From Nitrososphaerota archaeon (GTDB lineage: Archaea > Thermoproteota > Nitrososphaeria > PSMU01), in NCBI GenBank assembly GCA_040290255.1, contig PSMU01000001.1, positions 96,001 through 160,000 of the forward strand: a stretch of DNA of 64,000 nt, written 5' to 3'. This document shows, piece after piece, positions 181 through 44,468 of the stretch. The notes below the pieces were generated by a model. It worked only from the letters and a program-made list of their open reading frames with translations, did not search any database and had not been told where the DNA came from. Both the position numbers and the translations under genes were made by a program. How positions within the stretch are numbered: the stretch's first letter is position 1; each line of letters opens with the position of its first letter.

Positions 181-270
181 GCCCCGGTAGCTCAGGAGGT
201 TAGAGCGCGGCACTGGTAATGCCGAGAGGTATGGCCCGGCAAGTCGCGGGTTCGAATCCCGCCCGGGGCT
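181..270 (+). tRNA. tRNA-Thr(GGT), 16-nt non-canonical intron at 45/46 (227-242)
   Basis: GCCCCGG acceptor; CGGCA CT GGT AA TGCCG anticodon arm; variable loop AG[AGGTATGGCCCGGCAA]GTC; relaxed BHB GCCG AG^A / CGGC AA^G. Confidence 0.9.
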
Positions 271-25732: not shown

Positions 25733-25819
25733 TCTCTGGGCTTGAAACTCGCGGCAATTAAAAGCTTTCACTAATGTTTTTATTGCACGCATTGACGCTG
25801 GGCTCGGAGGTGATATGAC

Positions 25820-26234
25820 CTGAGCAAACAGGCCGAACTGGGAGAGGTTAAGGAGGGCAGCTACATGGTAATCGAAGGAGAGCCTTGCAGGATCGTGGAA
25901 GTAGAGAAGAGCAAGCCTGGAAAGTAGCGATATGCTACCCAGGTAGCATGGCTCTGCGAAGGTCAGGGTTGTAGGAATAGGCTTGTTTACCGGCTCGAAG
26001 AGAAGCTATCTAGGACCTGCCGACTCATTAGTAGAAATACCGCTGATCGATAAGCGCATCGCGCAGGTACTCGCGCTCCTGCCTGACAGGGTACAGTTGA
26101 TGGATTTGGAAACTTACGAGGTGTTCGAATCAGATATGCCACAGGAGGAAGGGCTTCGCGGTAAGCTTGAGCAAGGCAGGCAGGTGGAGTATTGGGTGGT
26201 AGGCGGGCGAAGGAAATTAATGAAGCTGCGTTAA
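25820..26234 (+). CDS. eif5a: Translation factor aIF5A, join(25820..25922,25945..26234), 130 aa, CTG start, BHB intron
   Basis: Spliced product [51 protein letters not shown]...; SD GGAGGTGA at 25806-25813. Confidence 0.93.
25923..25944 (+). other. 22-nt BHB mRNA intron in aIF5A
   Basis: GC CTGG AA^A GTAGC GATAT GCTAC CCAG GT^A GC; removal gives GGA A|AG CAT. Confidence 0.9.
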
Positions 26235-26275
26235 GGAACAAAATTTAATAAGCTCGAGCCTGCCTGTAGGCATCT

Positions 26276-26443
26276 GTGAGCAGCAGAAGGAAAAGGGAAG
26301 CGCCGCTGCCTGCCTCGGGCGCCGGGCTTCTGCGGTTCTTTGAGGATGAGACGAAAGGGATTAAGATCAGGCCCGAGGCCGTCGCAGCGATGTCGATCAT
26401 ACTGGTAGCGGTCTCGATACTGATTAAAATACTGATACGCTAG
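26276..26443 (+). CDS. secG: Preprotein translocase subunit Sec61-beta (55 aa; absent from ORF track)
   Basis: MSSRRKREAPLPASGAGLLRFFEDETKGIKIRPE followed by a TM helix. Confidence 0.92.
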   Translation: MSSRRKREAPLPASGAGLLRFFEDETKGIKIRPEAVAAMSIILVAVSILIKILIR

Positions 26444-26454
26444 GGCCTCGCGTA

Positions 26455-28212
26455 GTGAGCTGGAAGGCCCTTCCACCCAAGAGGCGCTATATAATATCAA
26501 TACCGCCGCTTTGGGCAAACCTGGTTTTGTATGTGGCCCTGCAGTTAGTACTCGCTTTCTCTTCGCCGTCTAAATGGATAGTGCCGTGGAGTGCAGCGAC
26601 GCAGTTAATTGCGTTACTGACAGTACCTCTGCTGTTTGGGTCCGGCACCGTGGTGCCTCACGGGGTAATAAGTAACCGGATGATCTTCTCTTCGAATGTT
26701 GCTAGCGTGATATATATAGTAGAAGTTACGATCATGAGATTCGCCAGGGGTTCGGATATCACCTTGGCAGAGCTCATGGTGCCCCTCTCAATGGGATATG
26801 CCTTTTCATTTATCGTAATCCGCTCCCTCTGTTTTCCCAACGGATATCTAGCCAGCGCGCTTAGCGTCCTTTGCGTGGCAACTCCCTTGGTAGAAGGCCT
26901 AGCGGTTGGAAGCGTGGCTGGCCAGTCACCTGTGCGCGCCTCTCTCCTGTTCATTCCCTCCATTTCCACGGTCTTCACATTAGTGCTCTCGGCCCATGCG
27001 GTCATTCGTAGGGGAAAAGCGGTTCTTAAGGAGGATCCCACGGTGATCCTGCCGGCGCTGCTTGAGGCCTGGAGAGGAAGGAATACGACATCGATCGAGC
27101 GGTGGCTAGAGGGCAAGGCCGAGCGAGCAAGGCTGAGCAATTATCTCCTATACTTTCGGTCTATTGATTCTAACGCGGCACAAGGCATATGGGCTATACT
27201 TGGCGCTCACCCAGGGCCCTTCAACCCGTTAGGCTCATATAATTTGCCGAGCCAAGTATATTCTTATCTTAAGCGTGCTTTGGGTAACGTCCCTACGTGC
27301 GTCTTTCATGGTCCGTCTACACATGAATTCGATTTGGTCTCGGCACGCGAGGTCATGAAATACCTGCAAGGCTTAACGCAAACGCAGCCCGATTATATCT
27401 CATCGGGGATATCTAGGGCAGAACTCCTAGTAAAGGATGCTGAATCAGCTTTTCCCTCACTCCTCTGGCTGGGCAAAGACCTGGTGCTATTTACTGGCCG
27501 AGCCTTAGACCCTTATAGTGATGATGTCGCGCCAGATCTGATCGGCGCCTTGCGCGACGCTTTGCGACTGGGGCATGCTAAGTGTGTGGTAATAGATGTG
27601 CACAATGGCATTACCTCACTAAGTAATGGAGAGGAACGTCTATCCAGCATGGGGAGTGAGTTAAACAACCTAATAAGAACGAATGAGGGCCCGAGGCAGG
27701 AGTCGCTGGTAGCGGGGTTTGCCGAAGTGGCCAAGAACCAGCTCTTGGATGTTATAGAGGTAGGGCCGGCTGGGGTCTGCTTCACCTACTTATCCAATGG
27801 ACAGCAGGCGTTGGGCGTAGTAGTGTTTGACGCGAATAGTATAGTTCCTACTGTGGCTAGATCGCTGACGAAGCTCTGCTCAGAACGCCTTGGTTACCCG
27901 ATATTGCTATGCACCACAGATAATCATATCACGGCTAGTGATGTCACATCACGTCACGGATATCTAAAACTGGCTCAAGTGACCGGAGTCGAGCGACTGG
28001 CTGACATAATTCTGGGCGGCATGTTGACCGCCCAAGCCAAGGCCGGGCGCGTTGTCGTCGATTTGCACGAGATACATACGGAGAGCCTAGTACTGGGTAA
28101 TCTGTTGAACGCCATTTCCGAACTCACGGAATTCGCTTCACGCGTTGTGCCGCGCGGCCTCTTATTGAGCTTAGCCCTACACGTTGTTGCCTTCGCAGGC
28201 AGTTTGCTCTAA
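26455..28212 (+). CDS. DUF2070-like membrane protein
   Basis: Multiple N-terminal TMs; HPGPF..GS.NLP, HGP.THE.D, IDVHN, TTDNH. Confidence 0.82.
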   Translation: MSWKALPPKRRYIISIPPLWANLVLYVALQLVLAFSSPSKWIVPWSAATQLIALLTVPLLFGSGTVVPHGVISNRMIFSSNVASVIYIVEVTIMRFARGSDITLAELMVPLSMGYAFSFIVIRSLCFPNGYLASALSVLCVATPLVEGLAVGSVAGQSPVRASLLFIPSISTVFTLVLSAHAVIRRGKAVLKEDPTVILPALLEAWRGRNTTSIERWLEGKAERARLSNYLLYFRSIDSNAAQGIWAILGAHPGPFNPLGSYNLPSQVYSYLKRALGNVPTCVFHGPSTHEFDLVSAREVMKYLQGLTQTQPDYISSGISRAELLVKDAESAFPSLLWLGKDLVLFTGRALDPYSDDVAPDLIGALRDALRLGHAKCVVIDVHNGITSLSNGEERLSSMGSELNNLIRTNEGPRQESLVAGFAEVAKNQLLDVIEVGPAGVCFTYLSNGQQALGVVVFDANSIVPTVARSLTKLCSERLGYPILLCTTDNHITASDVTSRHGYLKLAQVTGVERLADIILGGMLTAQAKAGRVVVDLHEIHTESLVLGNLLNAISELTEFASRVVPRGLLLSLALHVVAFAGSLL

Positions 28213-28228
28213 GCCGTCTGCGGAAGTT

Positions 28229-28468
28229 CTATAGCTCACCTCTATTGTATTTATCGACCGCCAAGTTATAAATGTCTATTATCTCGGGTTTCTTTTCGTA
28301 ATCGTAGCTAAATTTTAAGCCGCAATCTGTATTTCCACACATTACTATCACTCTGTTGGGATCCTCGTACCATGCCCTCACGCTTATTTGCCCACATTTG
28401 GGGCAGATGTACACTTTCGGCAGACTGCGCTTGAGCGGCTTAGGTATCTTTCGCCTTCTCCTACCCAT
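28229..28468 (-). CDS. elf1: Transcription elongation factor Elf1
   Basis: MGRRRRK...LPKVYICPKCG...CG..CG...IDIYN..VD. Confidence 0.88.
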   Translation of the reverse strand: MGRRRRKIPKPLKRSLPKVYICPKCGQISVRAWYEDPNRVIVMCGNTDCGLKFSYDYEKKPEIIDIYNLAVDKYNRGEL

Positions 28469-28506
28469 ATGGGCGCAGGCAGATCCCTAAATTTAAGTAC
28501 TTGGTC

Positions 28507-29088
28507 CTAATCCCTAAGCTGCGATAACGCTTCTCGTCCTTTTTCAGTTAACCGGTAAACGTAGGGCCTAGAGGCTGAGCGAGAGACCAAGCCCTGGTCC
28601 AGCATTGCCTTCAAAAGGCGTGATGTGTGCTCCCGGCTCCTGCGGATGCTCCGGCTAACCTCCGAAGCGCTCTTCTCGCCATCTTTGAGGGTGTAAAGAA
28701 CAGCTAATGATCCTGTCATGATATGTGACGAGCGTGATGATGTCACGCGTTCAGAGTTATCCTCAGGTGATTCTCTGCCACCCGGCGATCCCGTAGGTTG
28801 AGCATGCCCGCTGCTAACCATGCTCTTGGCCCCCGGTATAGGAGGTCTAGCCGAGCTCACTCTAAGTTCTAACATATCCATATCGGCCTTCAGTTTACCA
28901 AGATCCTGTTGCACTTTGGTCAATCGTCCGCTGAACGCCTCTATGATTACGCTCGCAGGTCCGATCCAACTCAAGGCCTTATCTAGCGAAGAGGACATCC
29001 TACGTATGCTCCATATCACTATGGTCAAGGATGCGACTGAAAGGATCAGGCTGATGATTAATGTGATGACGTCAATTGACGGCATCAT
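28507..29088 (-). CDS. Membrane-anchored coiled-coil/winged-helix protein
   Basis: N-terminal TM, coiled coil, C-terminal RSREHTSRLLK...GLVSR...PYVYRLT. Confidence 0.8.
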   Translation of the reverse strand: MMPSIDVITLIISLILSVASLTIVIWSIRRMSSSLDKALSWIGPASVIIEAFSGRLTKVQQDLGKLKADMDMLELRVSSARPPIPGAKSMVSSGHAQPTGSPGGRESPEDNSERVTSSRSSHIMTGSLAVLYTLKDGEKSASEVSRSIRRSREHTSRLLKAMLDQGLVSRSASRPYVYRLTEKGREALSQLRD

Positions 29089-29111
29089 GTTGTTGACTCC
29101 AAGTCATCATT

Positions 29112-29501
29112 TTAAGTCTTTCCCTCTGCTAGCTGATGCACCAAGGCGTCCAAGGTGGCTATTATATCCTGCAGCTTATCTTGTCTAGCTTTCGGCCCAC
29201 GGCCCGCCTCATGCACTAACGTAAGTGCTCTGCTTATGGCGTCTAGATCTAGCAGGTCTAGGTAGGACAACAAGAGCAACGTATAAAAGCAGCGCCTAAC
29301 CTGGGTTATCCCCTGACGCAAACTTCTGTAGTAGGCGCCTTTAGAGACAGCACCACCATCCTTGAGGCGGAGTCTTTCGAATAATTTCAGCTTTCTAGCG
29401 GTCTTTTGGATTAAAAATATGTCGAATGATGCAGGCTTTAGGCCGCTTCTCGAGAACAGATGCTCGGCGAGGGGGTCGTCGGCAAGAAGTCCTTTGAGCA
29501 T
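29112..29501 (-). CDS. Hypothetical protein (HTH-like SKGAYYR motif)
   Basis: 129-aa ORF co-oriented between two wHTH genes. Confidence 0.7.
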   Translation of the reverse strand: MLKGLLADDPLAEHLFSRSGLKPASFDIFLIQKTARKLKLFERLRLKDGGAVSKGAYYRSLRQGITQVRRCFYTLLLLSYLDLLDLDAISRALTLVHEAGRGPKARQDKLQDIIATLDALVHQLAEGKT

Positions 29502-29546
29502 AGTAGAGGGTGTTATACGACTCCGTATAACCCTATGCGAAGGTGG

Positions 29547-29963
29547 CTATTGAGTCGAGATTGCTGGAGCGGGTAGCCTGTAGAACCAGATTCGACCTAT
29601 TTTTTGTCGATAAAGAAGGCCCCTACTGACATACCTGCCGAGGTAGGTCGCTATAACGCTTAGCTCTATTGGCCGGCCAAAGTAATTTTCGTAGATCCTC
29701 TTCAAATCCTTAGATGTAAAGCTGCCGTATCTGAAGTTTAGTTGCAAGAGTGAAAGGAGCCTAGAATTAAGGGATTGATCGTCTGCGTCTGACAGCTCTG
29801 GGTTGGCCATAGCTGCTGGCTCAGTGGGTGGGGAGACTGACTCACGAGCCTCCACCTGTTTCAAGATGGAAGCTATGATTGTCGAATCCACATCGCCTTC
29901 AAATGACATGGTTATCTTTGAGCCCGGCTGCTCTATCGTTACCTTTACCCTCCTCGGAGGCAC
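29547..29963 (-). CDS. Hypothetical winged-helix protein
   Basis: FTSKDL..YE......LSVIATYLGR....GLL.R.K.GR.W.Y. Confidence 0.75.
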   Translation of the reverse strand: MPPRRVKVTIEQPGSKITMSFEGDVDSTIIASILKQVEARESVSPPTEPAAMANPELSDADDQSLNSRLLSLLQLNFRYGSFTSKDLKRIYENYFGRPIELSVIATYLGRYVSRGLLYRQKIGRIWFYRLPAPAISTQ

Positions 29964-30115
29964 CGATCGGCATAGTGGGGGCCGTTGTTAATAGGGTAAC
30001 TGTTAAGATTGTTGACATTATTGTTAAGTTAGCAATGAACGCGCACTCAACGCTCAGTCCATAACAGCGCTGTGAAAAGGAGTTAATCTTCGATGGAGGC
30101 AGATCCTCCACCTGC

Positions 30116-30390
30116 TCCACTGGAAAGGCAGGGGTCTTGAAATAAGGTAGAGGGTGGGTTACCACAGTTTAGTGGGGCATTTAGCTAGCGCGAGGGCGCA
30201 CCCCTCCGTTTCCTGTCGAACGTACCCCAGCGAGCCGACACCGATACTATATTGTTTGTACGCAGGATATCAATAACGCTTGACCTAACTACAGAAATAA
30301 GGACCCTGGCGACCAAGCCCGAGCTAGGATATATGACCACAGATAAACCTAATATTGAAGAGCTAGGATCTTCCACTGGAAAACCAGGGG
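30116..30390. promoter_or_regulatory. oriC: Replication origin with three ORB-like elements
   Basis: TCCACTGGAAAGGCAGGGGT (30116-30135,+); GTTCGACAGGAAACGGAGGGGT (30200-30221,-); TTCCACTGGAAAACCAGGGG (30371-30390,+); adjacent to cdc6. Confidence 0.82.
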
Positions 30391-31601
30391 CCTCACCGGC
30401 ATCGTTACTCATCGATCAAATCCTAGAGAGGGCTGCCCGAACCAGCGCGGTATTTATCAATAAGAACGTATTAAGTATGGACTACATTCCTGATTACTTG
30501 CCTTTTAGAGACAAGCAAATAGCCGAGGTAGCGTCCACTTTATCCCCCATTCTTAAGAAGGAAAGATGCTCCAACCTTTTCTTATACGGCAAACCCGGTA
30601 CAGGTAAAACCGTAGTCGCCCGCTTTGTGCTTCGAAGGTTGGCTGCAAAGGCGGTCTCCTTGGGCCTTCAGGACGTGTTCGTCTATGTCAATACAAGGCT
30701 ATCCGGTACAGCATACAGGGTTGTTTGGGAGCTGGCTCACCAGCTTGGCCTTTCGCTTCCATTCACAGGTCTATCAATACCGGAGATGATGCGAAGAATC
30801 TACGGCCATATCGCTAGGCAAAATACCAGGGTAATAATAGTCCTCGACGAAATCGACTTCTTGGTGAAGCACTTCGGTGACGATCTACTATATGAACTAA
30901 CCAGAGCGCGCCTAGATACAGGTGAGTACGCAGGATCTGCCTATACCATCGTGGGCATATCAAACGACCTAATGTTTAAGGAAGTTTTGGATCCTCGTGT
31001 CCTTAGCACCCTAGCCGAGGAAGAGATAGTGTTTCCTCCATATACTGCTCAGGAATTAGGAGAGATATTAAGAGAGCGAGCCCGGATCGCATTTAAGTCA
31101 GGGGCAATTAGCGACGCAGCGATAAATCTTTGCGCAGCTCTTTCCGGGTCTGAGCATGGCGATGCAAGGAGGGCCGTGGAGCTGTTGAGAGTAGCAGGCG
31201 AGATAGCAGAAAGGGCCGGGGCTTCACAAGTCACCGAGGAACATGTTCAGCAGGCTTCAATTCGTATAGAGAGCGACCGCCTACAGGATGCAGTCTCTAC
31301 ATTACCCCTCCACGCCAAACTCTTACTTCTATCCTCTCTAAGGCTTCAGAACGCCACTACCGGACAGGTTTACAGGAAATATGAGAGGCTCTGCGAAGCC
31401 TGCGGTGCCTCGCCAGTAACCCCCCGACGTGCAACAGGAATACTCAGTGAGTTAGACGCCCTAGGCCTTCTTCACGCCGAGCTGATTAGTTCTGGCAGAT
31501 ACGGCCGGACCAAACGTATAAAGACACAGGATAGTGAGCGCCTGCTGTCAATACTAGCTGCGGATCCAATACTCAAAGATCTAGTATCTTCAGAGGGCTA
31601 A
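30333..31601 (+). CDS. cdc6: Orc1/Cdc6 replication initiator (start uncertain)
   Basis: YGKPGTGKT, VLDEID, FPPYT..EL, GDARRA, GRYGRT. Confidence 0.96.
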   Translation: MTTDKPNIEELGSSTGKPGASPASLLIDQILERAARTSAVFINKNVLSMDYIPDYLPFRDKQIAEVASTLSPILKKERCSNLFLYGKPGTGKTVVARFVLRRLAAKAVSLGLQDVFVYVNTRLSGTAYRVVWELAHQLGLSLPFTGLSIPEMMRRIYGHIARQNTRVIIVLDEIDFLVKHFGDDLLYELTRARLDTGEYAGSAYTIVGISNDLMFKEVLDPRVLSTLAEEEIVFPPYTAQELGEILRERARIAFKSGAISDAAINLCAALSGSEHGDARRAVELLRVAGEIAERAGASQVTEEHVQQASIRIESDRLQDAVSTLPLHAKLLLLSSLRLQNATTGQVYRKYERLCEACGASPVTPRRATGILSELDALGLLHAELISSGRYGRTKRIKTQDSERLLSILAADPILKDLVSSEG

Positions 31602-31652
31602 CAGACACCTGCCGCTGATAGCCCGCCGGATCAAGTCCCCTTGACCCTCAGG

Positions 31653-31748
31653 CGCCGGGGGAGGGACTCGAACCCTCACGGGCCGTGAGGCCCACCGGCT
31701 ATCATGTAGGATCTCGAGGCCGGCGCGTTACCACTCCGCCACCCCGGC
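31653..31748 (-). tRNA. tRNA-Ser(CGA), 12-nt intron at 37/38 (31701-31712)
   Basis: CCGGC CT CGA G[ATCCTACATGAT]A GCCGG; long variable arm. Confidence 0.9.
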
Positions 31749-31851
31749 GATAGCTTTACTTGCTCCGGGCCCATTTTAATGTTTATACCCGTGGGCTAAG
31801 CGTCAATATAGACCGATTCATAACCCATAGGACGATACTAGTGAGCTGAGA

Positions 31852-31961
31852 TGCGGGGGGTGGGATTTGAACCCACGAACCCCTTAGGGGAGCGGATCCC
31901 CCGGCGAACTTGAGTCTCGGCCTTATGACCGCCGCCGTTAACCGGGCTTGGCTACCCCCGC
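31852..31961 (-). tRNA. tRNA-Leu(CAA), two introns: 30/31 (31916-31928) and 37/38 (31898-31908)
   Basis: GCGG[TCATAAGGCCGAG]A CT CAA G[TTCGCCGGGGG]A TCCGC; long variable arm. Confidence 0.87.
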
Positions 31962-32078
31962 GATCACTCGCTGATGAAACAACAACATAAGCTTTTATTC
32001 TGCCTTATTTTCCGACGATAAAGACATATCACACCGTTTATATCTCATGCCGCTCATGGCGAACGGTAAACCATAAGG

Positions 32079-32180
32079 TGCCGGGGGCGGGATTTTCGCT
32101 CGATTTCGAACCCGCGACCTCCGGATTATGAGTCTCGCCCTACATGACCGGCGCCCAAAACCAGGCTAGGCGACCCCGGC
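32079..32180 (-). tRNA. Elongator tRNA-Met(CAT), two introns: 30/31 (32134-32147) and 59/60 (32093-32104)
   Basis: CCGG[TCATGTAGGGCGAG]A CT CAT AA TCCGG; T-loop TTCGAA[ATCGAGCGAAAA]T with BHB TTCG AA^A / CGAA AA^T. Confidence 0.88.
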
Positions 32181-32233
32181 ACTTCTCATGATATTCGCAA
32201 GCTATATATAAGTTAACCTTTCGCTGAGTCGAA

Positions 32234-32350
32234 GTGAGCCTCACCGACTTTTTCAATGCGGCCGTGAGCCTCACGATAGCCTCTGCAATTCTTACTCTCA
32301 TCATCATCTTCCTATACCTTAGACCTGAAGCTACGTCGGCCTCTGGCTAG
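32234..32350 (+). CDS. Possible 38-aa single-TM peptide
   Basis: GTG start; MSLTDFFNAAVSLTIASAILTLIIIFLYLRPEATSASG; TATATA about 25-30 nt upstream. Confidence 0.35.
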   Translation: MSLTDFFNAAVSLTIASAILTLIIIFLYLRPEATSASG

Positions 32351-32363
32351 CTGTGCCCCTATA

Positions 32364-33788
32364 CTAAGGCATATTCCTGGGTGATAGCACTTGAACCATC
32401 GTATACTTAGTCACCTCTAGCGTGACTCTATCTCTGAACATCTTGGGTTTTGCGGCCCTTATTAACACCTTTTGCCCTGAGCGGAGCATCTTTACCTGGT
32501 GCGCGTTACTGCCCCAGGCCACCAATTCCACCTCACCACTGCTATCTCCTATTAGGATCCTCGCCTGCTCGACCTCCTTGCCATCGCTCAACTTCACAAC
32601 TCTAACCATTGGCCCAGATAACGTGATGGCGGGCAAAAAGACCCATTGTTCGCCCGGCCCTATATCAGCTATTTTCTTGGAAAGTGCCTCTACCGCTGAT
32701 GCCTTCGTGTTTCCTTCGACGCTCTTTATCTCGACAACATCATGCGCCCTAATAAAGCTCGCTGAGCTCCTACTGGTCAGATGCACGTTCGCATCCAATA
32801 TATCGCCTAACCTCAGGACAAGGTCCCTAGAGGCTTCCACAAAAATAAGCTCCCCGACGTCGTTCCTGCACACCAGATAAGCAAGGTTGCTCTGCGGGTC
32901 CTCTCTGAACGAGAGCACGGTTAGCGCCTGGGTTCTCTGCAGGTCTTCCACTTCAAGATCGCTTTCATCGCCACCCTTTATGAGGAGGCCCCCATAGCTG
33001 CTTTTTGTCACTCTTACATTGTATAGGTACACCAACCTTCCCTCTGCCTCAGATATTCTCTCCAGCGTCAATGGAGGCCGGCGGAAGAGAACTCTTAAAG
33101 GCAGACCCACGCCCCTTACATCCCTGATTCCAAAGGTAACATACTCTAGACCCTTCCCCTCCGTATCCATAGACCCTCGCACCTTCCCCGCGACAATCCC
33201 CCGGAGGACCAAAAAATGCGTCCTGTTCCCAATCGCCGATACATCCGTCGCCAGTTCCTTGGGACTGCTAACGCCTTCTATGTCCGATAGCTTCTCAACC
33301 ACACTATTCTCTCTAACATGTACTGTCACATGATAATCTCTAGCCTCTGTTACAGCTACATTTGAGACCCTGAGCGCATCACCCCTTGAGATCTGTAATG
33401 ATTCCAGCTTCTGCGCTGCTCGCTCCCAAAAGATCATAAGAGCACAGGCACGCTCATCATAGAGAACCCCTTTTCGATAAACCAGCTCGCCCCCTTGGTC
33501 CCGGTTCCCCTGCTTCATCTTAGTAGGGCCTAGAGTAAGGACACGTCCTATCACAGTTACGCCTCTAAGTCCTGCTGTCAGATCACCTACCCTCAGGGCC
33601 AGTATTGGTTCAGGTTCTAAGCGAACACCTAAGTCAGCAGCCACTAGGTAAGCCGCGCCGAGCCGACTCAAATAACCGCCCCCGATCCTCTCACGCTTCT
33701 CGTCTATTAGCCTAAGGAGTTCTTGGGAATCCCTGCCCGTTCGCTCGCTGATGAGCCTAAGCAGTTCGTCTAGCTTCCTTACACTCAC
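32364..33788 (-). CDS. RPA-like multi-OB-fold ssDNA-binding protein
   Basis: GGYLS..GA.YLVA.DLG N-terminus; OB folds (GDSSGEVELVAW). Confidence 0.82.
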   Translation of the reverse strand: MSVRKLDELLRLISERTGRDSQELLRLIDEKRERIGGGYLSRLGAAYLVAADLGVRLEPEPILALRVGDLTAGLRGVTVIGRVLTLGPTKMKQGNRDQGGELVYRKGVLYDERACALMIFWERAAQKLESLQISRGDALRVSNVAVTEARDYHVTVHVRENSVVEKLSDIEGVSSPKELATDVSAIGNRTHFLVLRGIVAGKVRGSMDTEGKGLEYVTFGIRDVRGVGLPLRVLFRRPPLTLERISEAEGRLVYLYNVRVTKSSYGGLLIKGGDESDLEVEDLQRTQALTVLSFREDPQSNLAYLVCRNDVGELIFVEASRDLVLRLGDILDANVHLTSRSSASFIRAHDVVEIKSVEGNTKASAVEALSKKIADIGPGEQWVFLPAITLSGPMVRVVKLSDGKEVEQARILIGDSSGEVELVAWGSNAHQVKMLRSGQKVLIRAAKPKMFRDRVTLEVTKYTMVQVLSPRNMP

Positions 33789-33843
33789 TTTCCTTCCCTC
33801 TTCAATCAGTTCCCCTATTAAACTTCCACTATTTAGTCCGAGC

Positions 33844-34155
33844 TCATAGTGACTTCGCTGTTGCCGCCCTCTTGCGCTTACAGATCATCAGCTCTAGCGA
33901 GGACAGATGCTTTATTCCGCCACCAGGCACTTCGATCGAATCCTTTTCAATTTTCCAACCCTCAATGCTCAGATCCTTTATGAAGCTCTCCCTCAACAAG
34001 TTAACCACCCGCGCCATATTAATTATGCCTACCCCTCTAGCCCTAACTTTAACGCTATTGCATCCCGTATTGAAATGCGTGAGAATGGCGGTCACATAGC
34101 TGAGGGGCGGCTTCTTGCTGCCTATTATGACGAGTGGTAGCTCTTCCTCCAACAA
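33844..34155 (-). CDS. albA: Alba-family chromatin protein
   Basis: IIG.KKP..SYV, VKVRARG..I. Confidence 0.85.
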   Translation of the reverse strand: MLEEELPLVIIGSKKPPLSYVTAILTHFNTGCNSVKVRARGVGIINMARVVNLLRESFIKDLSIEGWKIEKDSIEVPGGGIKHLSSLELMICKRKRAATAKSL

Positions 34156-34245
34156 GGTCGCACGCTCCGCTCATAATATAACTCTTTACCAGCCAAGAGC
34201 TTCAGCTACGGCCTCAGCCATGATGTCGGAATCGCGCCAGCGAGA

Positions 34246-34343
34246 TGCGGGGGGTGGGATTTGAACCCACGAACCCCTTAAGGGACGAGGTCTCTCAATA
34301 TATCCTAAGCCTCGCGCCTTTGACCAGGCTCGGCCACCCCCGC
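34246..34343 (-). tRNA. tRNA-Leu(TAG), 12-nt intron at 37/38 (34292-34303)
   Basis: CGAGG CT TAG G[ATATATTGAGAG]A CCTCG. Confidence 0.92.
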
Positions 34344-34432
34344 ACGCTAAACTGCATTGTATTCTCTTATAAGTAAAACGTCGGCGTTTTTTGACAAGAG
34401 CCACTTTACATGATCCAAGTTAAGCCGTTAGT

Positions 34433-34891
34433 ATGCTGTTGGCCGATTGGCAGATTCGACGGGCCCTAGCGCTAAAGCGCTTGGTCATAGATCCTCTGGA
34501 CGAGGCGCTCATTCAACCTAATGGCGTAGACATAAGGATGGGCTCGGAGTTCAAGTTTCTAGACAAGACGGAAAGCTTTCGGGCTTCCTCCATTCTGCTT
34601 GAGCCACATCGCAGTGTCCTCTGCACTTCGTACGAGACGTTTAGAATGCCTAACGATTTAACTGGCATCATTTGCTTGAAGAGTTCCTACGCCAGAAGAG
34701 GCCTGTTAGCGCCTACCACAGTTATAGACTCCGGGTATTATGGCCGCTTAACGCTTGTCTTGACAGCCGGCAGCGCAGCCATCGAGCTCAGGAGCGGTGA
34801 ACCCATATGGTATCTCCTGCTGGTCCGCTCAGCCAAAGTAAAGAAACCCTATTCCGGCAAGTACCAAGGCATCGACGTTTTGTCGCAATAA
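34433..34891 (+). CDS. dcd: dCTP deaminase / trimeric dUTPase family
   Basis: IQPNGVDIR, KSSYARRG, IDSGY.G, YSGKYQG. Confidence 0.85.
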   Translation: MLLADWQIRRALALKRLVIDPLDEALIQPNGVDIRMGSEFKFLDKTESFRASSILLEPHRSVLCTSYETFRMPNDLTGIICLKSSYARRGLLAPTTVIDSGYYGRLTLVLTAGSAAIELRSGEPIWYLLLVRSAKVKKPYSGKYQGIDVLSQ

Positions 34892-34908
34892 ACCAGCTTA
34901 ACCTAGAG

Positions 34909-34980
34909 GGCCGCGACCGGGAATCGAACCCGGATCTGGAGGTCCACAGCCTCCCGTGCTGCCATTGCACCATCGCGGCC
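34909..34980 (-). tRNA. tRNA-His(GTG), G-1 encoded
   Basis: G-GCCGCGA...GGAGG CT GTG GA CCTCC...TCGCGGC C. Confidence 0.94.
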
Positions 34981-35058
34981 ATACGCCTAGAACAGTTTAG
35001 CACCTTTAACCTTTTCATCGACGGCGCATCTCATTCATGTGAGTTAGTGTGCAAGCAG

Positions 35059-35132
35059 TGGACCGGGCGGGATTCGAACCCGCGACCTCCCGCGTGCGAG
35101 GCGGGCGTTCTACCAGGCTGAACTACCGGCCC
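35059..35132 (-). tRNA. tRNA-Ala(CGC)
   Basis: GGGCCGG/CCGGTCC with G3-U70; CCCGC CT CGC AC GCGGG. Confidence 0.95.
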
Positions 35133-35226
35133 ATCAGCATCTCAAAGCAGGCTCCTTTAAAGTTACCAAGCCTTAACTCACCGAGAACCTGAGGATATAC
35201 CTTTGGCGCTTCGATCATAGCTTAGT

Positions 35227-35318
35227 TGGCGGGCCCGGTGGGATTCGAACCCACGACCTACGGGTCTCTCTACAGCGGTCTAAGAGCCCGCCGCTCTACC
35301 GTGCTGAGCTACGGGCCC
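35227..35318 (-). tRNA. tRNA-Lys(CTT), 15-nt intron at 37/38 (35266-35280), CCA encoded
   Basis: GCGGG CT CTT A[GACCGCTGTAGAGAG]A CCCGT; perfect BHB. Confidence 0.94.
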
Positions 35319-35380
35319 GTGTTGTGAGGTCGAGAGGACCCCCTTTAAACTTTAACTTACCCCATCCTAGTTCCAAGCGC

Positions 35381-37717: not shown

Positions 37718-38339
37718 TTGCCATCCTCGTGGCAAGATCATGGGCCTCTCGAAGCGGCGCTGGGTAGCTCCCCCCTAACTCTAACACGATCCTCCTTACG
37801 TCCTCATTAGAAACTGCATGGCCAATGCTCGCATAGTACCTCTGCGGCCCTGCTGACGCCCATCCTATCACTTCTCCATCAGCAACTATAGCAGAAACTT
37901 CACCTTCCACTTCCTCAACCCTACCCTCTAGCAGCGACTTCGCTATTCCGACCACAGGCCTATCTAGGAGAACTCCTACTATGACGGCTAGCCCCGCCCT
38001 TCTTGGGTGAGCGTACCCGTGTCCATCCACTAGGGCTAAATCAAACTCGTCCTTTAGGGGTTCGGCGGCCGCCAGCATAAGCGGTGCTTCCCGTAAGTAG
38101 AGCAGGCCAGGGATATAGGGGAAAAACACTTTTCCCTTATATACGTTGGATTTGATCGTCGTTTTCTCTTCATAGTCATAGAGAACGGCCGCGGCCACCC
38201 CGACGCCCCTGGCGTAGCTTACATCTAGGCCCAAAAGATACCTGAGGCTCCCATTCCATCCGCGCATATGCATGGCCTTGGCGAGCTGCCTCTGTAGCCT
38301 AATGAAGAAGGATATAGTCGCCTTATCTATCCCGCTCAT
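37701..38339 (-). CDS. nfi: Endonuclease V
   Basis: GLDVSY, PYIPGLL.LRE, VDGHG.AHPRRAGLA, GIAKS. Confidence 0.94.
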   Translation of the reverse strand: MSGIDKATISFFIRLQRQLAKAMHMRGWNGSLRYLLGLDVSYARGVGVAAAVLYDYEEKTTIKSNVYKGKVFFPYIPGLLYLREAPLMLAAAEPLKDEFDLALVDGHGYAHPRRAGLAVIVGVLLDRPVVGIAKSLLEGRVEEVEGEVSAIVADGEVIGWASAGPQRYYASIGHAVSNEDVRRIVLELGGSYPAPLREAHDLATRMANEAKG

Positions 38340-38405
38340 CTGAATAAAAAAAAGTAAAGGGTACTAAAAAGTTTACAAAAGGCCCTAATCAGAGAGGGCT
38401 TACAA

Positions 38406-39395
38406 ATGCAGGCGAAAAGAGCCTCCCGGCCTAGTGCATTTAAGCCAGTGATTACTCAAGCAGCTAATGAGCTTAGCAGGGCAGGGTTTAAGGTCCTCCC
38501 GCTCTCCGGCCCCTCTATGCCTCATATGCTAGCTGCGCGGCGAGGCATGGCAAAGCTGGTCTGTCTTTGCGAATACAGACGCCAGAGAGACTTACATAGA
38601 GCTCGCATCAATTTATCGGAATTAGCTAAAACATTAGGTCTTACGGCCGAGTTATGGAGCAAGAAAAACGCCAGAATGAGTAAGTCCGTGGTCTATAAGG
38701 CGCCTAGCTTTATCGAGCCAGCTCGTGGCAGGGCACTTGCTACCGGGGAGATGCTCGCTATCGAGAAGCTGGCCGGCGCAAGCGGATTGAGCAGGCTTTT
38801 AATGATGGAAAACGCTGGTCGGTCTATAGCGGAGGCGGCAGGCAGACTCTTTGGTTTGACGCAGGGCATGCGGGTCGTGGTGGTCGCAGGCCTGGGCAAC
38901 AACGGCGGAGATGGCCTTGCAGCAGCCAGACATTTAAGATCGTTAGGACTTAAGGTGGACGTCTTTCTTCTTGGGGGAGAGGATGAGATAAGAACACAAG
39001 AAGCGCGTACCAACTGGGGCATACTCAAGAATTTGCGGGCAGCTAGGCTTTATACCCTGAAGGAACACGGCGTTAAAGTGCTGGGCAGGCTGCTGCGACA
39101 CGCCGATTTAATTATCGACGCCCTGCTCGGCACAGGGCTCAAAGGCGCCGTTAGGCCTCCTTTTGACGAAGCAATAAGGCTCATAAACGCCTCTCAGAAG
39201 CCCGTCCTCTCCGTCGACATACCTTCTGGCCTTGACTCAGATACCGGCAGGGCGCTGGGCTTAGCCGTTAAGGCCACCATCACAGTTACTCTACACCGGC
39301 CAAAACTAGGATTGTTGCGGCGAAGCCCCTACGTAGGCGAACTCTATGTGGGCAGCATCGGTCTGCCTGTGCTGCGGAAGAGTCAAGCTATATAA
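38406..39395 (+). CDS. nnrE: NAD(P)H-hydrate epimerase (YjeF-N) with about 100-aa N-terminal extension
   Basis: MMENAG, GNNGGDG, IDALLGTG, SVDIPSG. Confidence 0.88.
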   Translation: MQAKRASRPSAFKPVITQAANELSRAGFKVLPLSGPSMPHMLAARRGMAKLVCLCEYRRQRDLHRARINLSELAKTLGLTAELWSKKNARMSKSVVYKAPSFIEPARGRALATGEMLAIEKLAGASGLSRLLMMENAGRSIAEAAGRLFGLTQGMRVVVVAGLGNNGGDGLAAARHLRSLGLKVDVFLLGGEDEIRTQEARTNWGILKNLRAARLYTLKEHGVKVLGRLLRHADLIIDALLGTGLKGAVRPPFDEAIRLINASQKPVLSVDIPSGLDSDTGRALGLAVKATITVTLHRPKLGLLRRSPYVGELYVGSIGLPVLRKSQAI

Positions 39396-39418
39396 CTTGG
39401 CGAGTGATATTCCCTACA

Positions 39419-40447
39419 ATGGGCGTTAATCTTAGGGATCTAGTAACGCCAGTAAAAGTGAGCCTGAAGGCGCTCAGCGGTAAAACTATTGCCGTAGATG
39501 CTTATAATGCGCTCTATCAATTCTTGGCCATTATAAGAGGAGAGGCCGGCGAGCCCCTTATGGACAGCCAGGGCAGGATAACAAGTCACTTAAGCGGCCT
39601 CTTTTACAGAACCTTAAATCTGCTTTCCGAAGGCGTTAAGCTCATCTACGTATTTGATGGCGTGCCTCCCTCGCTAAAGGCCGCTGAGATAGCGCGCAGG
39701 AGGGCCGTCAAGGACGAGGCCACCCAGAAATACGTTGAAGCCTTAAAGAGGGGCGATCTAGCCGAGGCCAAGAAGTACGCGCAGGCCACCTCTATGATCA
39801 AGGACTATATGGTGGACGACGCGAAGCGGCTCTTAAGGCTGCTCGGGGTGCCCTATGTCGATGCGCCCTCTGAGGGTGAGGCGACGGCCGCCTATCTGAC
39901 TCAAAAGAAAATGGCGGACATGGTGGCTTCACAGGACTTTGACAGCCTACTCTTTGGAGCCACATGTCTAATTAGAAATCTTACGATAAGTGGGAGGAGA
40001 AAATTGCCAAATAAGCCTGTATACGTTGAGGTCGAGCCCGAGCTTATAACGCTTAACGAATTGCTTACCCAGTTGGGCCTGACGCGTGAGCAGCTAATCG
40101 ATGTCGCCATTCTCATAGGCACCGACTTCAATCCCGATGGATTTGAGGGAATTGGCCCCGCAACGGCCTTGAAACTGGTTAAACAGTATGGCCGCCTAGA
40201 GAACATCCCCTCTTTACAGGAGAAACTAAAGGAGGTCGACTACAATCAGATAAGGGAAATCTTTCTGAAACCAGCTCTACCCGCCCGAATAACTCTAGAG
40301 TGGGGCGCGGTAGATGAGCAGGGGCTAATAGACTTCCTATGCAGGGAGAGGGACTTTTCTGTCGAGAGGGTCACCAACGCCCTTAGCCGGTACAAAGAAG
40401 CTCAAGCAAGATCCGCTTCTAGCCTGGAAAAATGGTTTAGAGCCTAG
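39419..40447 (+). CDS. fen: Flap endonuclease 1
   Basis: DAYNALYQFL, APSEGEA, GTDFN, PIP-like SLEKWF. Confidence 0.97.
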   Translation: MGVNLRDLVTPVKVSLKALSGKTIAVDAYNALYQFLAIIRGEAGEPLMDSQGRITSHLSGLFYRTLNLLSEGVKLIYVFDGVPPSLKAAEIARRRAVKDEATQKYVEALKRGDLAEAKKYAQATSMIKDYMVDDAKRLLRLLGVPYVDAPSEGEATAAYLTQKKMADMVASQDFDSLLFGATCLIRNLTISGRRKLPNKPVYVEVEPELITLNELLTQLGLTREQLIDVAILIGTDFNPDGFEGIGPATALKLVKQYGRLENIPSLQEKLKEVDYNQIREIFLKPALPARITLEWGAVDEQGLIDFLCRERDFSVERVTNALSRYKEAQARSASSLEKWFRA

Positions 40448-40712
40448 CGCTGAATCTTCCGACCCCGAGCACCGTTACTGAGCCAACCCCCTCAATGCTA
40501 CTGAGCTGCCGCTCTAACTCGTCCACACTCCCTTCGGCATCCTTCACGCGAACGTCTAAGACCAAAGCGTTTAAACCAAAGGCTATGGGCTCTTCCCAAG
40601 ATCTCTGGACCAACGATGATTTTAGCGACTCCTTTATGTTCTCAAGCAGGGAACTCAGCGGAACCTCGATGCCGCTAGGTAGAACACGTACCCGGACCAG
40701 CAGCTCCCCCAT
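40437..40712 (-). CDS. ef1b: Elongation factor 1-beta
   Basis: RVLP, EEPIAFGL.AL. Confidence 0.92.
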   Translation of the reverse strand: MGELLVRVRVLPSGIEVPLSSLLENIKESLKSSLVQRSWEEPIAFGLNALVLDVRVKDAEGSVDELERQLSSIEGVGSVTVLGVGRFSARL

Positions 40713-40794
40713 AACTCTCGCCCTCGACATCTCGCCTAAACCCGTAGTTATGCCTTCCGTCAAGGCCACCTCAGAGTCCAGAAGTGCTCCTAAT

Positions 40795-40983
40795 TTACGG
40801 CCCTTCAAAAAGGCAATTGATGCACTTATAAGTTCTCATCAGCTTTCTGCAAACCTCACACCTCCAAATTAGAACTTGCTTGCAATTTGGGCAATAGAAT
40901 TTAATGGCCAAGCTCTTAGGTCTTATTGGCCTATTGCAAGACGTACAAAGGGGCAAAGCCAGCTGGCTGCTCACTCCTACCAC
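40795..40983 (-). CDS. Zn-ribbon RNA-binding protein (DUF1610-type)
   Basis: CTSC, FYCPNC, IWRC..CRK, YKC..C.FEGP; upstream of ef1b. Confidence 0.9.
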   Translation of the reverse strand: MVGVSSQLALPLCTSCNRPIRPKSLAIKFYCPNCKQVLIWRCEVCRKLMRTYKCINCLFEGP

Positions 40984-41061
40984 GGACTCTTTTACGCCGT
41001 CCTAATAACATATTCCCTAGCTCCTGAAGCGGCTGCTCTGCTTACTCATGCTTCGCATCTT

Positions 41062-42228
41062 TCACTCGAAAAGCGCCTTCACTAAGGATGGCACAAGAGC
41101 GCTCAGGGCCTGCCCTGCTAATTCGAGGATCGAGGAGAGGCCCGCCATGCCGATAAACCTCCTTATTACGCGTGAGTGCTCGTCGAAACTCCCTAGCTCA
41201 AACTCCACATGCTCTATCCCTGCCCTTTTAGCCATTCCTATCAACGCTTCCAGTTGCTTGTTGCTCAGGTTCCGGTATACCTGTCGCATCAGGCTCATCA
41301 ACTTGAATTCCTTGCCGAACCTCTGAAGCCAAGCACGTTCATACTCTCTACCCGGTTCACACCCTTCCTTAAGGCTCATGCCTAGCGCCCTGCCTGCTAG
41401 CACGCCTCCCATTCCCGAGGTGAAGATCCCTCCCGCCGTTGTGGGTTTAGCCTGGCCCGCCGCATCACCAACGACGAGTTGATTCGGAGCTATGAAAAAG
41501 CTCTCAAGCGCTCCTCCTGTCACCAGCGGGGCAGCCACCCTCTTTACTACATTTGCATCAAGGCGTCTTACTAGCCTTTCAAAGGCGGGCGCAGGGCTGG
41601 CGCCTACACTCGCCGCTCCTATCCTCACCATGTTATCGCCAAGCGGTATGACCCATGAAAAGAAGCCAGGCGTCGCCTCCTGATCAATATAAACCAATAC
41701 CTCCTTATCGTCCAAGCCCCTTGCCCAAGCATCGCACTGAACGGCTCTAGCCACGTCACCCTTCTTTCTTCTAAGATAAGAATACGCGCCGCCGGCGTCC
41801 ACGACCCAAGTGGAAGATACAGCTCCACTTTGTGTCAGCACCTGACCCCCTCTAATCTCTAAGACGCGTCGACCTACTTCAAGGCGAGCTCCTGCCTCGC
41901 TTGCCTGCTCTGCTGCCCGTTTATCTAGGGCGCGCCTGCTAAGCACCAGCAGCCGCTGTCGACCGGCGTTTATGGTAAGCTTTGAGCCATTAGGGGAGAT
42001 TATCGTGCCTGTCTCTATCCTGTTTAAAACCTCGTCCTTAGGTATGATGCCCAGCTCAAGGAGGCCTTGGGCGCTTACCAATCCCCCGCACTTCTCAGGA
42101 GATCCGACCTCCAGATCTTCTTCTAACACCATAACATTAAGCCCCCTTAAAGCGCACTCACGCGCCGTCAAAAGTCCTGCGAGGCTCCCTCCAACAACTA
42201 CTACATCAAATTCAGCTTCCTCGTCCAC
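41062..42228 (-). CDS. Geranylgeranyl reductase-family flavoprotein
   Basis: DVVVVGG, CGG, FSWVIP, VGDAAGQ.KP.T.GGI. Confidence 0.88.
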   Translation of the reverse strand: MDEEAEFDVVVVGGSLAGLLTARECALRGLNVMVLEEDLEVGSPEKCGGLVSAQGLLELGIIPKDEVLNRIETGTIISPNGSKLTINAGRQRLLVLSRRALDKRAAEQASEAGARLEVGRRVLEIRGGQVLTQSGAVSSTWVVDAGGAYSYLRRKKGDVARAVQCDAWARGLDDKEVLVYIDQEATPGFFSWVIPLGDNMVRIGAASVGASPAPAFERLVRRLDANVVKRVAAPLVTGGALESFFIAPNQLVVGDAAGQAKPTTAGGIFTSGMGGVLAGRALGMSLKEGCEPGREYERAWLQRFGKEFKLMSLMRQVYRNLSNKQLEALIGMAKRAGIEHVEFELGSFDEHSRVIRRFIGMAGLSSILELAGQALSALVPSLVKALFE

Positions 42229-42275
42229 GTTCCTAGGTTCGAGAAGACATTATTAATGGTTTGTAAAATCTTCTT

Positions 42276-42644
42276 GTGAGCCGGGGCTTGGAGGAACTTA
42301 AGATGGCGATCGTTCTCAGAGCCGACATCAAAATGGGCAAGGGCAAGCTTGTGAGCCAGGCCTGTCATGCGGCCATAGAGGCCTATGAATCGGCCAGGGC
42401 AAAGAGCCCCGACCTCTGCGCTACCTGGCGGGAACAGGGAGCTAAGAAGATCGTGCTAAAGGTAGATTCTCTACAAGCGCTCTTGGAGTTGGCCGCGAGA
42501 GCTGCAGCCCGGGGTTTGCCACATGCCCTTATAGTTGATAGGGGCCTGACTCAAATCCCGCCCAATACTCCTACAGCCCTAGGAATAGGCCCGGCTCCAT
42601 CTTCGTTACTTGATCAGATAACCGGCTCACTTAAGCTCCTTTAA
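42276..42644 (+). CDS. pth2: Peptidyl-tRNA hydrolase Pth2
   Basis: MGKGKL..QACHA, KKIVLK, D.GLTQ, GIGP. Confidence 0.95.
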   Translation: MSRGLEELKMAIVLRADIKMGKGKLVSQACHAAIEAYESARAKSPDLCATWREQGAKKIVLKVDSLQALLELAARAAARGLPHALIVDRGLTQIPPNTPTALGIGPAPSSLLDQITGSLKLL

Positions 42645-43117
42645 TCCTCGCTCTTCAGGGAGGTGGCCCTTTTTCCTAATCTGTGCTTTAGCTCCCTATC
42701 AGAGAGTATCTGAGGCGCTCTTGGGTCAACGCAAATCAATTCGACGAAGACGTACCTTCCATCTTGAAATAGCTTATAACCACCCAAGGGGACTAGGTTA
42801 GGATATCTCTTCCGAGCCCTCTGCAAGGCCACCTCAACATAGTTCAGGCTCACCTTCCTTCTCTTTACGCCCAGCGCCTTCTGTCGCCTTCCGGCCCTCG
42901 GCCGCTGCCTTCTCATGGCCTTCCGGCCAACCCTTACCCGCAGTACTACCATACCCGGTTTATCCTTGTAACCTACTCTGCGGGCCCTATCGATTCTAAT
43001 CGGCTTGTCAAGACGCACGATAGCCGGCTCTCTCCTCCACTTTACCAGCCTACTCATGAGTAGGTGCCTCTTTTCTTTCCACAGCTCTTGCCATGTTTCG
43101 GTCATATAGCTATACAT
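42641..43117 (-). CDS. rpl15e: 50S ribosomal protein L15e
   Basis: WRRE, DRARRVGYK.K.G, RYPNL. Confidence 0.95.
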   Translation of the reverse strand: MYSYMTETWQELWKEKRHLLMSRLVKWRREPAIVRLDKPIRIDRARRVGYKDKPGMVVLRVRVGRKAMRRQRPRAGRRQKALGVKRRKVSLNYVEVALQRARKRYPNLVPLGGYKLFQDGRYVFVELICVDPRAPQILSDRELKHRLGKRATSLKSED

Positions 43118-43193
43118 AACCTCCTCCCAGCCCCCCTCCGCCTAGTATAAAAGTGCACGTTGATCCACACGGCTCTAGTTATCAGGCTCACTC

Positions 43194-44346
43194 TCACTTA
43201 TCCGCCTCGACAGGCCAATAATTTAGTGACCAGAAGGATACGGGAACGTCGGCAAGGCGATACCCTTCTATAACCTTCGGTATGGCCGGCAGGTTCCTAA
43301 AGGAGGGAGTCGAGATGCGCACTCTGTAAGGATGAGGACCTCCGTCGGAGATTATATGGTAGGACATGCAGCCTCGGGCGGCCTCGGTTCTGGCGTAGGC
43401 TTCCCCCACCCTGCCTCGTAACTGCCCTCTTAGGGGCAGCCTGACAGGGCCCGGCCTCATCTTCCTGATCGCCTGTTTGATGATCTTTAGGGACTCCAAC
43501 ATCTCGTAGAAGCATACCCAACAGCGCGCCCATGAATCCCCCTCCTGCATAACTGGAACCGAAAACTCGAAGGTATCATAGAGCGAGTAGGGCTCGTCTA
43601 TCCTTACATCCGATTTAACGCCGGAGGCCCTAAGGGTTGGGCCTACGCATCCTAGGGCTATGGCATCCGCCTTGCTCAGGAAGCCCACGTCCATAGTCCT
43701 TTTTTCGAAAACAGGGTTTTCAAAGTAGATTTTCTTGTACTCTTGGAGCCTGCCCTCGAAGTACTCGCAGACTTTAAGCACCTTATCTTCCCAGCTGGGA
43801 GGCACATCACACCTTACCCCACCAGGCACATAGTAGGCAAAGGTAACCCTAGCGCCTGAGGCCATGGCAGCCAAGTCGATAAAGTACTCGCGATCCCCGG
43901 TTGCCCACATGAACATCGTGCTGTGACCCGTAAATATGCCCTGTATGGCAAGCCAGTACAAGTGGCTGATAATCCTGTTAAATTCCGCCATTATCACGCG
44001 CAGGTATTGCGCGCGTTCCGGCACCTTCTCGCTCAACCCTAGCAATTCTTCTACCGCCAGCACATAAGGAAACAATATGCCACATGAGTCTAAGATTACA
44101 GGCCGTTCAAGGTGAGGTATATTCTGAATATAGGTCCTATACTCGCACATTTTCTCCTCGCCCCGGTGGACGTACCCTGGGTCGGGGATACACTTGATGA
44201 CGATATCGCCATCTAAGGTCACTATTAGCCTAAAGTGCCCACTTCCCGGATGTTCCCCCCTACTAGGTCTGGGGACCTATTGAGACAGTGAGCACGTTAT
44301 CTGCTACTCGCTCCTCTGTGTAGACATGTTTGAGTGCCGACTCCAA
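43194..44346 (-). CDS. nuoD: NADH-quinone oxidoreductase subunit D, complement(join(43194..44252,44269..44346)), about 378 aa, BHB intron (TTG start; GTG at 44355 possible)
   Basis: Spliced ...TVSIGPQHPGSGHFRLIVTLDGD...PGYVHRGEEK...EAARG..; no NiFe CxxC motifs. Confidence 0.9.
44253..44268 (-). other. 16-nt BHB mRNA intron in nuoD
   Basis: GGT CCCC AG^A CCT AGT AGG GGGG AA^C ATC; removal gives CCC CAG|CAT CCG. Confidence 0.87.
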
Positions 44347-44468
44347 GAGGACCACCGCATCACGCTTAAGGCTACGAGCTTTTAAACCTGCCCCTGCCGT
44401 TCTTGCGGCCCAGCTATTAGGCGAGAAAAAGCCTTTTTACCAAGCGAAGCCTTGGCCTGGATAACAGC

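Follow-up and report, generated by a model that had tools for sequence, protein, structure and literature searches.

The 64,000-nt stretch of DNA analysed here, from a Nitrososphaerota archaeon, is referred to throughout as the window (C3:96001-160000). It belongs to a draft genome of 1.21 Mb in nine contigs, 91% complete, whose closest relatives among the species genomes compared share only its class. The window carries an rRNA operon, a 5S rRNA gene, the gene for RNase P RNA and 10 tRNA genes, together with two protein genes, aIF5A on the plus strand and nuoD on the minus strand, each broken by a short insert that changes the reading frame. A third gene with a short insert, encoding serine hydroxymethyltransferase (SHMT), lies on the same contig outside the window. 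Our data suggest that all three inserts are probably archaeal bulge-helix-bulge (BHB) introns of pre-mRNA, which would be spliced by the endonuclease EndA and the ligase RtcB.

When the whole window was searched against Rfam at gathering thresholds, the matches were confined to rRNAs, RNase P RNA and tRNAs; no group I intron, group II intron or other curated RNA family was matched beyond these. The GC content of this part of contig C3 (about 60-160 kb) forms a smooth valley of 52-56%, relative to 62-67% elsewhere in the genome, with a gradual climb to either side. Of the three inserts, those in aIF5A and nuoD lie inside this valley and that in SHMT lies outside it.

Inserts in aIF5A and nuoD

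The aIF5A frame that opens at 25814 closes at an in-frame TAG (25925-27) directly past ...SKPGK, and the remainder of the protein, HGSAK..., is read in a different frame from 25947 to the stop codon at 26232-34. Deletion of 22 nt (25923-25944) repairs the frame, and boundaries shifted by +1 or +2 yield the identical product. Predicted exon 1 runs from a CTG at 25820 to 25922 and closes on the opening base of the GKHG Lys codon, which the insert splits; the predicted intron occupies 25923..25944, and exon 2 with its stop codon occupies 25945..26234. The joined protein aligned without gaps to its homologues from 24 relatives. Moreover, the two exons adjoin on the IF-5A model NF003076 (129 positions): the translation of 25820-25921 matched positions 4-35, residue 1 of the translation from 25947 fell on position 37 with the match continuing through 129, and position 36 between them corresponds to the split Lys codon. 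The gene is single-copy in the genome and otherwise intact.

In the canonical substrate of archaeal EndA, a 4-bp helix lies between two 3-nt bulges, each of which is cut past its second base. The aIF5A site folds in this manner. Its central helix pairs CUGG (25917-20) with CCAG (25939-42), and it is flanked by the bulges AA^A (25921-23) and GU^A (25943-45), an inner helix of 5 bp (25924-28 with 25934-38), and outer pairs 25916/46 and 25915/47 followed by five more (25908-12 with 25951-55). Both the minimum free energy (MFE) fold and the centroid fold reproduced this structure, with z = -3.2 and none of 200 shuffles being as stable.

The beginning of aIF5A is itself unusual. No in-frame ATG, GTG or TTG occurs upstream of 25865, and in the alignment the relatives' proteins begin at the CTG of 25820. 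An ATG at 25815, within the motif GGAGGTGAT, is out of frame and meets a TGA after two codons. The start region (25806-25865) showed no indel in contigs assembled from four sequencing runs.

The NuoD-like gene on the minus strand is read to ...SIGPQ, is interrupted by 16 nt (44268 down to 44253), and continues in another frame with HPGSGH.... Predicted exon 1 (44269..44355) starts at GTG 44355 or TTG 44346, the predicted intron (44253..44268) contains two consecutive in-frame TAG codons and splits the GPQHP motif, and exon 2 including the stop codon spans 43194..44252. Here, only one pair of boundaries repairs the frame, and the joined protein aligned without gaps to those of 11 relatives. Residue 1 of exon 2 fell on position 9 of 384 of NF004739 (NADH-quinone oxidoreductase subunit D; E = 1.9e-56), and the 29-aa piece encoded by exon 1 matched no family when searched alone. 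The BHB has a central CCCC/GGGG helix, bulges AG^A and AA^C, an inner hairpin of 2-3 bp (CC/GG with a 5-nt loop) and three outer pairs; the MFE fold kept the central helix, the 5' bulge and the inner hairpin. The gene is single-copy at E <= 1e-30 and intact in other respects. Its closest matches among the relatives, at full query cover, were open frames of 376-417 aa, compared with 360 aa here.

In both genes, the cuts dictated by the motif are the very cuts that restore the frame. The inserts lie 78-108 nt into the coding sequence, inside motifs that are invariant among the aligned relatives. In the whole genome, BHBs of the aIF5A grade occurred at 6.5e-6 per position-and-length pair tested (809 of 123.7 million) and those of the nuoD grade at 4.9e-5 (6,010 of 123.7 million). 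As three boundary pairs restore the product for aIF5A and one does so for nuoD, the chance of finding such a BHB where it is needed comes to about 2e-5 for aIF5A and 5e-5 for nuoD. An earlier, sequence-only reading of the window had proposed that frame-breaking inserts of 22 and 16 nt, bearing an in-frame TAG, interrupt conserved motifs early in these two coding sequences; the exact restoration of the frames and the gapless alignments establish that the inserts are real and located as described. The same reading had asked whether similar folds might be equally common at random frameshifts, and the frequencies above mark BHBs of these grades as rare across the genome.

Both inserts were present, free of indels, in DNA contigs from four runs belonging to four studies. 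Those of runs X1 and X2 were nearly identical to the window, and those of X6 and X7, two runs equal in size and perhaps a single data set deposited twice, diverged from it at about 5% of bases. A blastn-short search detected no similarity of either intron to the rest of the genome and hence nothing to suggest that they had recently transposed from a tRNA intron.

Genome-wide search and the SHMT insert

Every contig was searched on both strands for BHBs that span 10-60 nt and would, once removed, join two coding frames. Strict motifs defined 314 pairs of open reading frames (ORFs), nearly all of which were junctions between neighbouring genes, and in the 138 best of these pairs (248 parts) Pfam revealed no family split at the junction. 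Pfam does miss short first exons: it gave no match for aIF5A exon 2, and its NuoD domain begins at residue 109. The full-length NCBIfam models detected the split aIF5A and nuoD genes where Pfam saw no junction. When 77 candidates with short first exons were examined with NCBIfam, those still truncated were aIF5A, nuoD and one decayed ABC-ATPase gene. A list compiled independently of BHBs, from coding signal upstream of the first start codon, then exposed SHMT, which the outer-helix rule of the scan had missed. Relaxed rescans yielded 44 and 168 ORF pairs, which were screened through their junction peptides and nearby starts; none of six further pairs from these rescans was split according to NCBIfam, leaving SHMT as the sole addition. 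Interrupted genes thus number three among about 1,330 ORFs, a count that covers introns which change the frame or contain a stop codon and whose motif has at least four central pairs. A scan for introns of 61-200 nt returned 592 matches, mostly gene junctions, and was uninformative.

The third insert, an 18-nt BHB with an in-frame TAG, lies on the minus strand at C3:389864-389881 (L138:9864-9881) and divides ...NRYAE from GWPGER... of SHMT. Its length keeps the frame, and the TAG lies inside it. The two parts of the gene matched model positions 2-46 and 47-233, and are therefore contiguous at 46|47. The BHB combines a central GCGG/CCGC helix, bulges AG^A and AG^G, and an inner GGGC/GCCC helix.

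SHMT offered what the other two genes could not, namely a comparison of the insert across lineages. Eight relatives from two other families carry inserts of 32 or 29 nt with full BHB geometry at the same site, and the SHMT match begins at model position 46-47 in every one of the six genomes of one of these families and in two genomes of the other, f2 (G001 and G033). The intron is therefore predicted at one site in nine genomes from three families, with lengths of 18, 29 or 32 nt. The BHB geometry of 3-nt bulges with 4 bp between them is kept in 9/9 of these genomes. In the alignment of the nine sequences, 95.5% of 134 cells pair, compared with 34-52% in slid controls, which retain the relatedness of the sequences. 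Both sides change in 9 of 16 pairs, a value that none of 500 shuffles reached; the nine sequences being kin, this figure is not a probability. In one covarying pair of the central helix, a synonymous change in the exon is matched by a change in the intron. In 7/9 genomes an in-frame stop occurs within three codons past the 5' site; an eighth genome has its stop at the fifth codon, and the ninth has none. These numbers refer to the 40 relatives compared, and the class holds at least 54 further SHMT matches. In family f4, SHMT is uninterrupted among the matches listed. The two f2 genomes, G001 and G033 (L209, L210), have two SHMT genes each, one uninterrupted and one with the 29-nt intron.

All three inserts share four Watson-Crick central pairs and reside in an invariant motif with an early in-frame TAG, and in all three genes the cuts predicted from the BHB lead to gapless alignments with homologues. 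The numbers of outer and inner pairs vary: 2 (+5) and 5 in aIF5A, 3 and 2-3 in nuoD, and 1 and 4 in SHMT.

Several other candidates were examined and rejected. Pantetheine-phosphate adenylyltransferase (window 13188) is intact and in frame, and TBP, uL22, RFC, QueE, S17e and reverse gyrase have their N-termini in frame. The junctions at the IF-2B-like gene, at GGPP synthase and elsewhere lie between ordinary adjacent genes. The ABC-transporter ATPase gene at C7:33650-34420 (plus strand) contains several in-frame stops as well as changes of frame, and is a true pseudogene. MetRS (L131:17140-17210, minus strand; C3 near 257,200) has 72 codons without an in-frame ATG, GTG or TTG, and an ATG one base out of frame directly precedes the conserved N-terminus, with a 19-nt BHB just past that ATG. 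We rejected this BHB as an intron: the strand that would be excised is conserved in relatives, and its removal would shorten the N-terminus.

Coding signal well upstream of the first canonical start was also seen on C2 near 39,376 and near 88,040 (both minus strand) and on C4 near 90,300 (plus) and near 64,030 (minus). Two such genes, an EPSP-synthase-like gene and one for a signal-peptide protein, have a CTG at the expected N-terminus, and initiation at CTG may occur in this lineage. At C8:38476-38857 (L169:18476-18857, plus strand), two small ORFs of 47 and 66 aa, alike in their sequence pattern, are separated by a 40-nt gap that fits a BHB; neither of the two matched any family.

Splicing machinery, tRNA introns and competing explanations

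The genome encodes two EndA paralogues. The 183-aa alpha protein matches the catalytic chain of the Aeropyrum pernix enzyme (3p1z_B, E = 7.6e-48), has the catalytic Tyr, His and Lys residues, and carries K-P-K aligned to K44-P45-R46 of the A. pernix loop. In the 182-aa paralogue, the aligned position holds no His, and this protein also matches the structural chains 3p1z_A and 3ajv_A. A loop with Lys-Pro/Val-Lys/Arg is, according to the available portion of a 2025 paper, specific to Crenarchaea and tied to broad specificity (PMC12397907). The EndA of this archaeon is accordingly predicted to be a two-subunit heteromeric enzyme with a Crenarchaea-type loop, of the broad-specificity type. The RtcB ligase is encoded as well, in a 495-aa open frame with a full-length PF01139 match above the cut-off (566 bits, positions 1-426, E = 1.7e-170). 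The proposal of the sequence-only reading that the inserts are EndA-type BHB introns served by a broad-specificity endonuclease agrees with these proteins and with the motif.

The tRNA genes of the window provide the more usual setting for such an enzyme. Seven of the 10 are overlong, together containing six inserts of 12-16 nt and, in the anticodon arm of one gene, 24 extra nucleotides. Rfam alignments of the six-gene cluster on the minus strand (31653..35318) display short introns in the anticodon arms of four genes and long variable arms in three, and BHB matches were found at position 37/38 in tRNA-Lys and tRNA-Leu. Three further inserts of 12-14 nt were rejected as introns; they represent the long variable arms typical of type II tRNAs, in one Ser-like and two Leu genes. 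The introns in the window are predicted to total seven or eight; the 10 introns of 11-16 nt counted originally are thus too many, with seven of the 10 genes interrupted and three variable arms probably miscounted. The tRNA-Leu at 31852-31961 (minus strand), the gene with 24 extra anticodon-arm bases, probably has two short introns and a normal long variable arm. In tRNA-Thr(GGT) at 181-270 (plus strand), about 16 extra bases lie between the intact anticodon arm and the T arm, and the strict BHB scan of these bases was negative.

We consider it probable that the aIF5A, nuoD and SHMT inserts are BHB introns of pre-mRNA spliced by EndA and RtcB. The observations behind this reading are the geometry, the exact restoration of the frames, the encoded enzymes, a relative about 95% identical that has both window inserts, and the SHMT covariation. 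Cleavage and ligation we infer from them as follows. The site in the transcript would fold into two 3-nt bulges around a 4-bp helix, the heteromeric EndA would make one cut per bulge, and RtcB would ligate the exons to give an mRNA encoding the full, collinear protein. A ribosome on unspliced mRNA would reach an in-frame TAG one to three codons past the 5' splice site and could make only a short N-terminal peptide.

Some results weigh against this reading. Matches to aIF5A and to NuoD were each found in 38 of the 40 relatives, and neither insert occurs in any of them, both being seen only in this genome and in contigs at least 95% identical to it, so that the support from covariation is confined to SHMT; the aIF5A frames of all 38 are uninterrupted (131-205 aa, compared with 95 aa here). 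Among 80 metagenome loci of aIF5A, 77 are uninterrupted, two end at contig ends and one lacks the motif, and these loci include no close kin, the best match being 63% identical. The stability of the nuoD fold is ordinary relative to dinucleotide shuffles (z = -0.04), the local SHMT fold is likewise no stabler than its shuffles (z = +0.54), and the SHMT motif of this genome has a single outer pair. In addition, the missing canonical start of aIF5A before 25865 is a second oddity of that gene, which splicing does not explain. Because the genes are uninterrupted in relatives and in metagenome loci, the aIF5A and nuoD introns appear to be young and lineage-specific.

The bolder claim of the sequence-only reading was of a candidate genome-wide system, in which BHB introns have colonised protein genes and splicing capacity could act as a regulated gate on both translation and respiration. 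It would agree with the finding of three hosts within a single genome of 1.2 Mb, with the invariant motifs and their early TAG codons, and with the broad-specificity type of EndA. We nevertheless regard such a system as unlikely, as the strict and relaxed scans together with the family checks added SHMT only to the two genes already known. The gate is unsupported, and SHMT, an enzyme of C1 metabolism, serves neither translation nor respiration. The prediction that further cases would be found genome-wide was borne out by that single gene, and no other split gene held up. The idea that many seeming pseudogenes of this lineage may in fact be spliced genes finds no support either: the sole other broken gene that we saw, the ABC-transporter ATPase, is a genuine pseudogene.

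That decayed gene and the small size of the genome raise the question of whether the inserts are simply inactivating, aIF5A, nuoD and SHMT being pseudogenes of a reduced genome. Each gene has one lesion only and is otherwise conserved at full length, and aIF5A and nuoD exist in single copy. The relative that differs at about 5% of bases retains both of their inserts with no indel. Moreover, the SHMT insert has been kept at one site in three families with compensatory changes, which decay would not produce, and we therefore hold inactivation to be very unlikely. The ribosome might instead cross the inserts without RNA splicing, through programmed frameshifting or bypass of the kind known from T4 gene 60, where a stop codon after the last sense codon and a hairpin that follows it are characteristic. 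A stop codon directly past the last sense codon is found here too, followed by a hairpin in aIF5A. Matching take-off and landing codons flank none of the three inserts, however, a jump over 22, 16 or 18 nt does not qualify as frameshifting, and covarying helices with BHB geometry in all nine SHMT genomes are foreign to such a mechanism, to which we give scarcely any weight. Finally, an artefact of assembly or binning could be suspected in a draft of nine contigs with the window in a low-GC valley; with the same indel-free sequence recovered in contigs of four runs from four studies, this is barely conceivable.

On the preferred reading of the inserts as spliced introns, one may speculate, tentatively, that BHB introns recur in the mRNAs of this archaeal class as a small intron group of their own. 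They might persist preferentially in codons of indispensable residues, where imprecise loss of the intron would be lethal, with the early stop codon acting as a fail-safe, and splicing of aIF5A might make translation output dependent on EndA and RtcB. The site in an invariant motif and the early in-frame TAG, shared by all three, in any case provide a testable hypothesis on intron persistence. If the splicing reading is true, EndA-mediated mRNA splicing reaches beyond cbf5 to three more host genes that look essential, of which SHMT has an intron with covariation in three families. Gene callers would report such genes as truncated or as pseudogenes, and completeness would be underestimated in lineages that have them.

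Comparison with known introns

In 2002, Watanabe reportedly described a BHB intron in the cbf5 pre-mRNA of Desulfurococcales and Sulfolobales. As far as the accessible text of a 2009 paper goes, cbf5 introns measure 16-44 bp, have been gained and lost in a lineage-specific manner in association with heteromeric EndA, and interrupt the catalytic Asp codon; for other protein genes, introns had been predicted and never confirmed (PMC2738675). The portion available of a 2020 paper names cbf5 as the only additional BHB intron reported and adds a case in a 5' untranslated region (UTR) (PMC7714728), and the 2025 paper, in its accessible part, cites the cbf5 papers only (PMC12397907). Our literature search, with subscription journals and supplements outside its reach, found no report of BHB introns in aIF5A, NuoD or SHMT.

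The present inserts resemble the cbf5 intron as short BHB introns of a coding sequence (here 16, 18 and 22 nt) in an archaeon with a heteromeric EndA. The aIF5A insert further resembles it in lying inside the codon of a key residue, Lys here and, as the available part of PMC2738675 has it, the catalytic Asp in cbf5. They differ in their hosts, aIF5A, nuoD and SHMT, in their lineage, and in the occurrence of three hosts in one genome. Whereas cbf5 splicing has been demonstrated experimentally, the present introns are predicted from DNA. The cbf5 gene of this genome is itself open over at least 310 codons, with no frame break.

The 5' UTR intron of HVO_1309 in Haloferax volcanii is, like those described here, an EndA substrate in mRNA, outside tRNA and rRNA; unlike them, it belongs to an untranslated leader and, in the text available, is cut both in vivo and in vitro, whereas ours lie within coding sequences and are predicted (PMC7714728). 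The non-canonical tRNA introns of archaea with (alpha-beta)2 EndA are comparable in motif and size range, as exemplified by the 12-16 nt tRNA introns of the window, and presumably the same enzymes act on tRNA and mRNA introns; the difference is that the host RNA is an mRNA.

A more distant parallel is provided by HAC1 and XBP1, whose unconventional mRNA splicing is of the IRE1/RtcB type. That type of splicing is also named in the accessible part of PMC13149111. In both systems, an endonuclease and RtcB-type ligation excise, or in our case would excise, a short frame-changing intron from mRNA with no spliceosome involved. The nuclease and the recognition motif are different, and the IRE1 system is regulated by stress.

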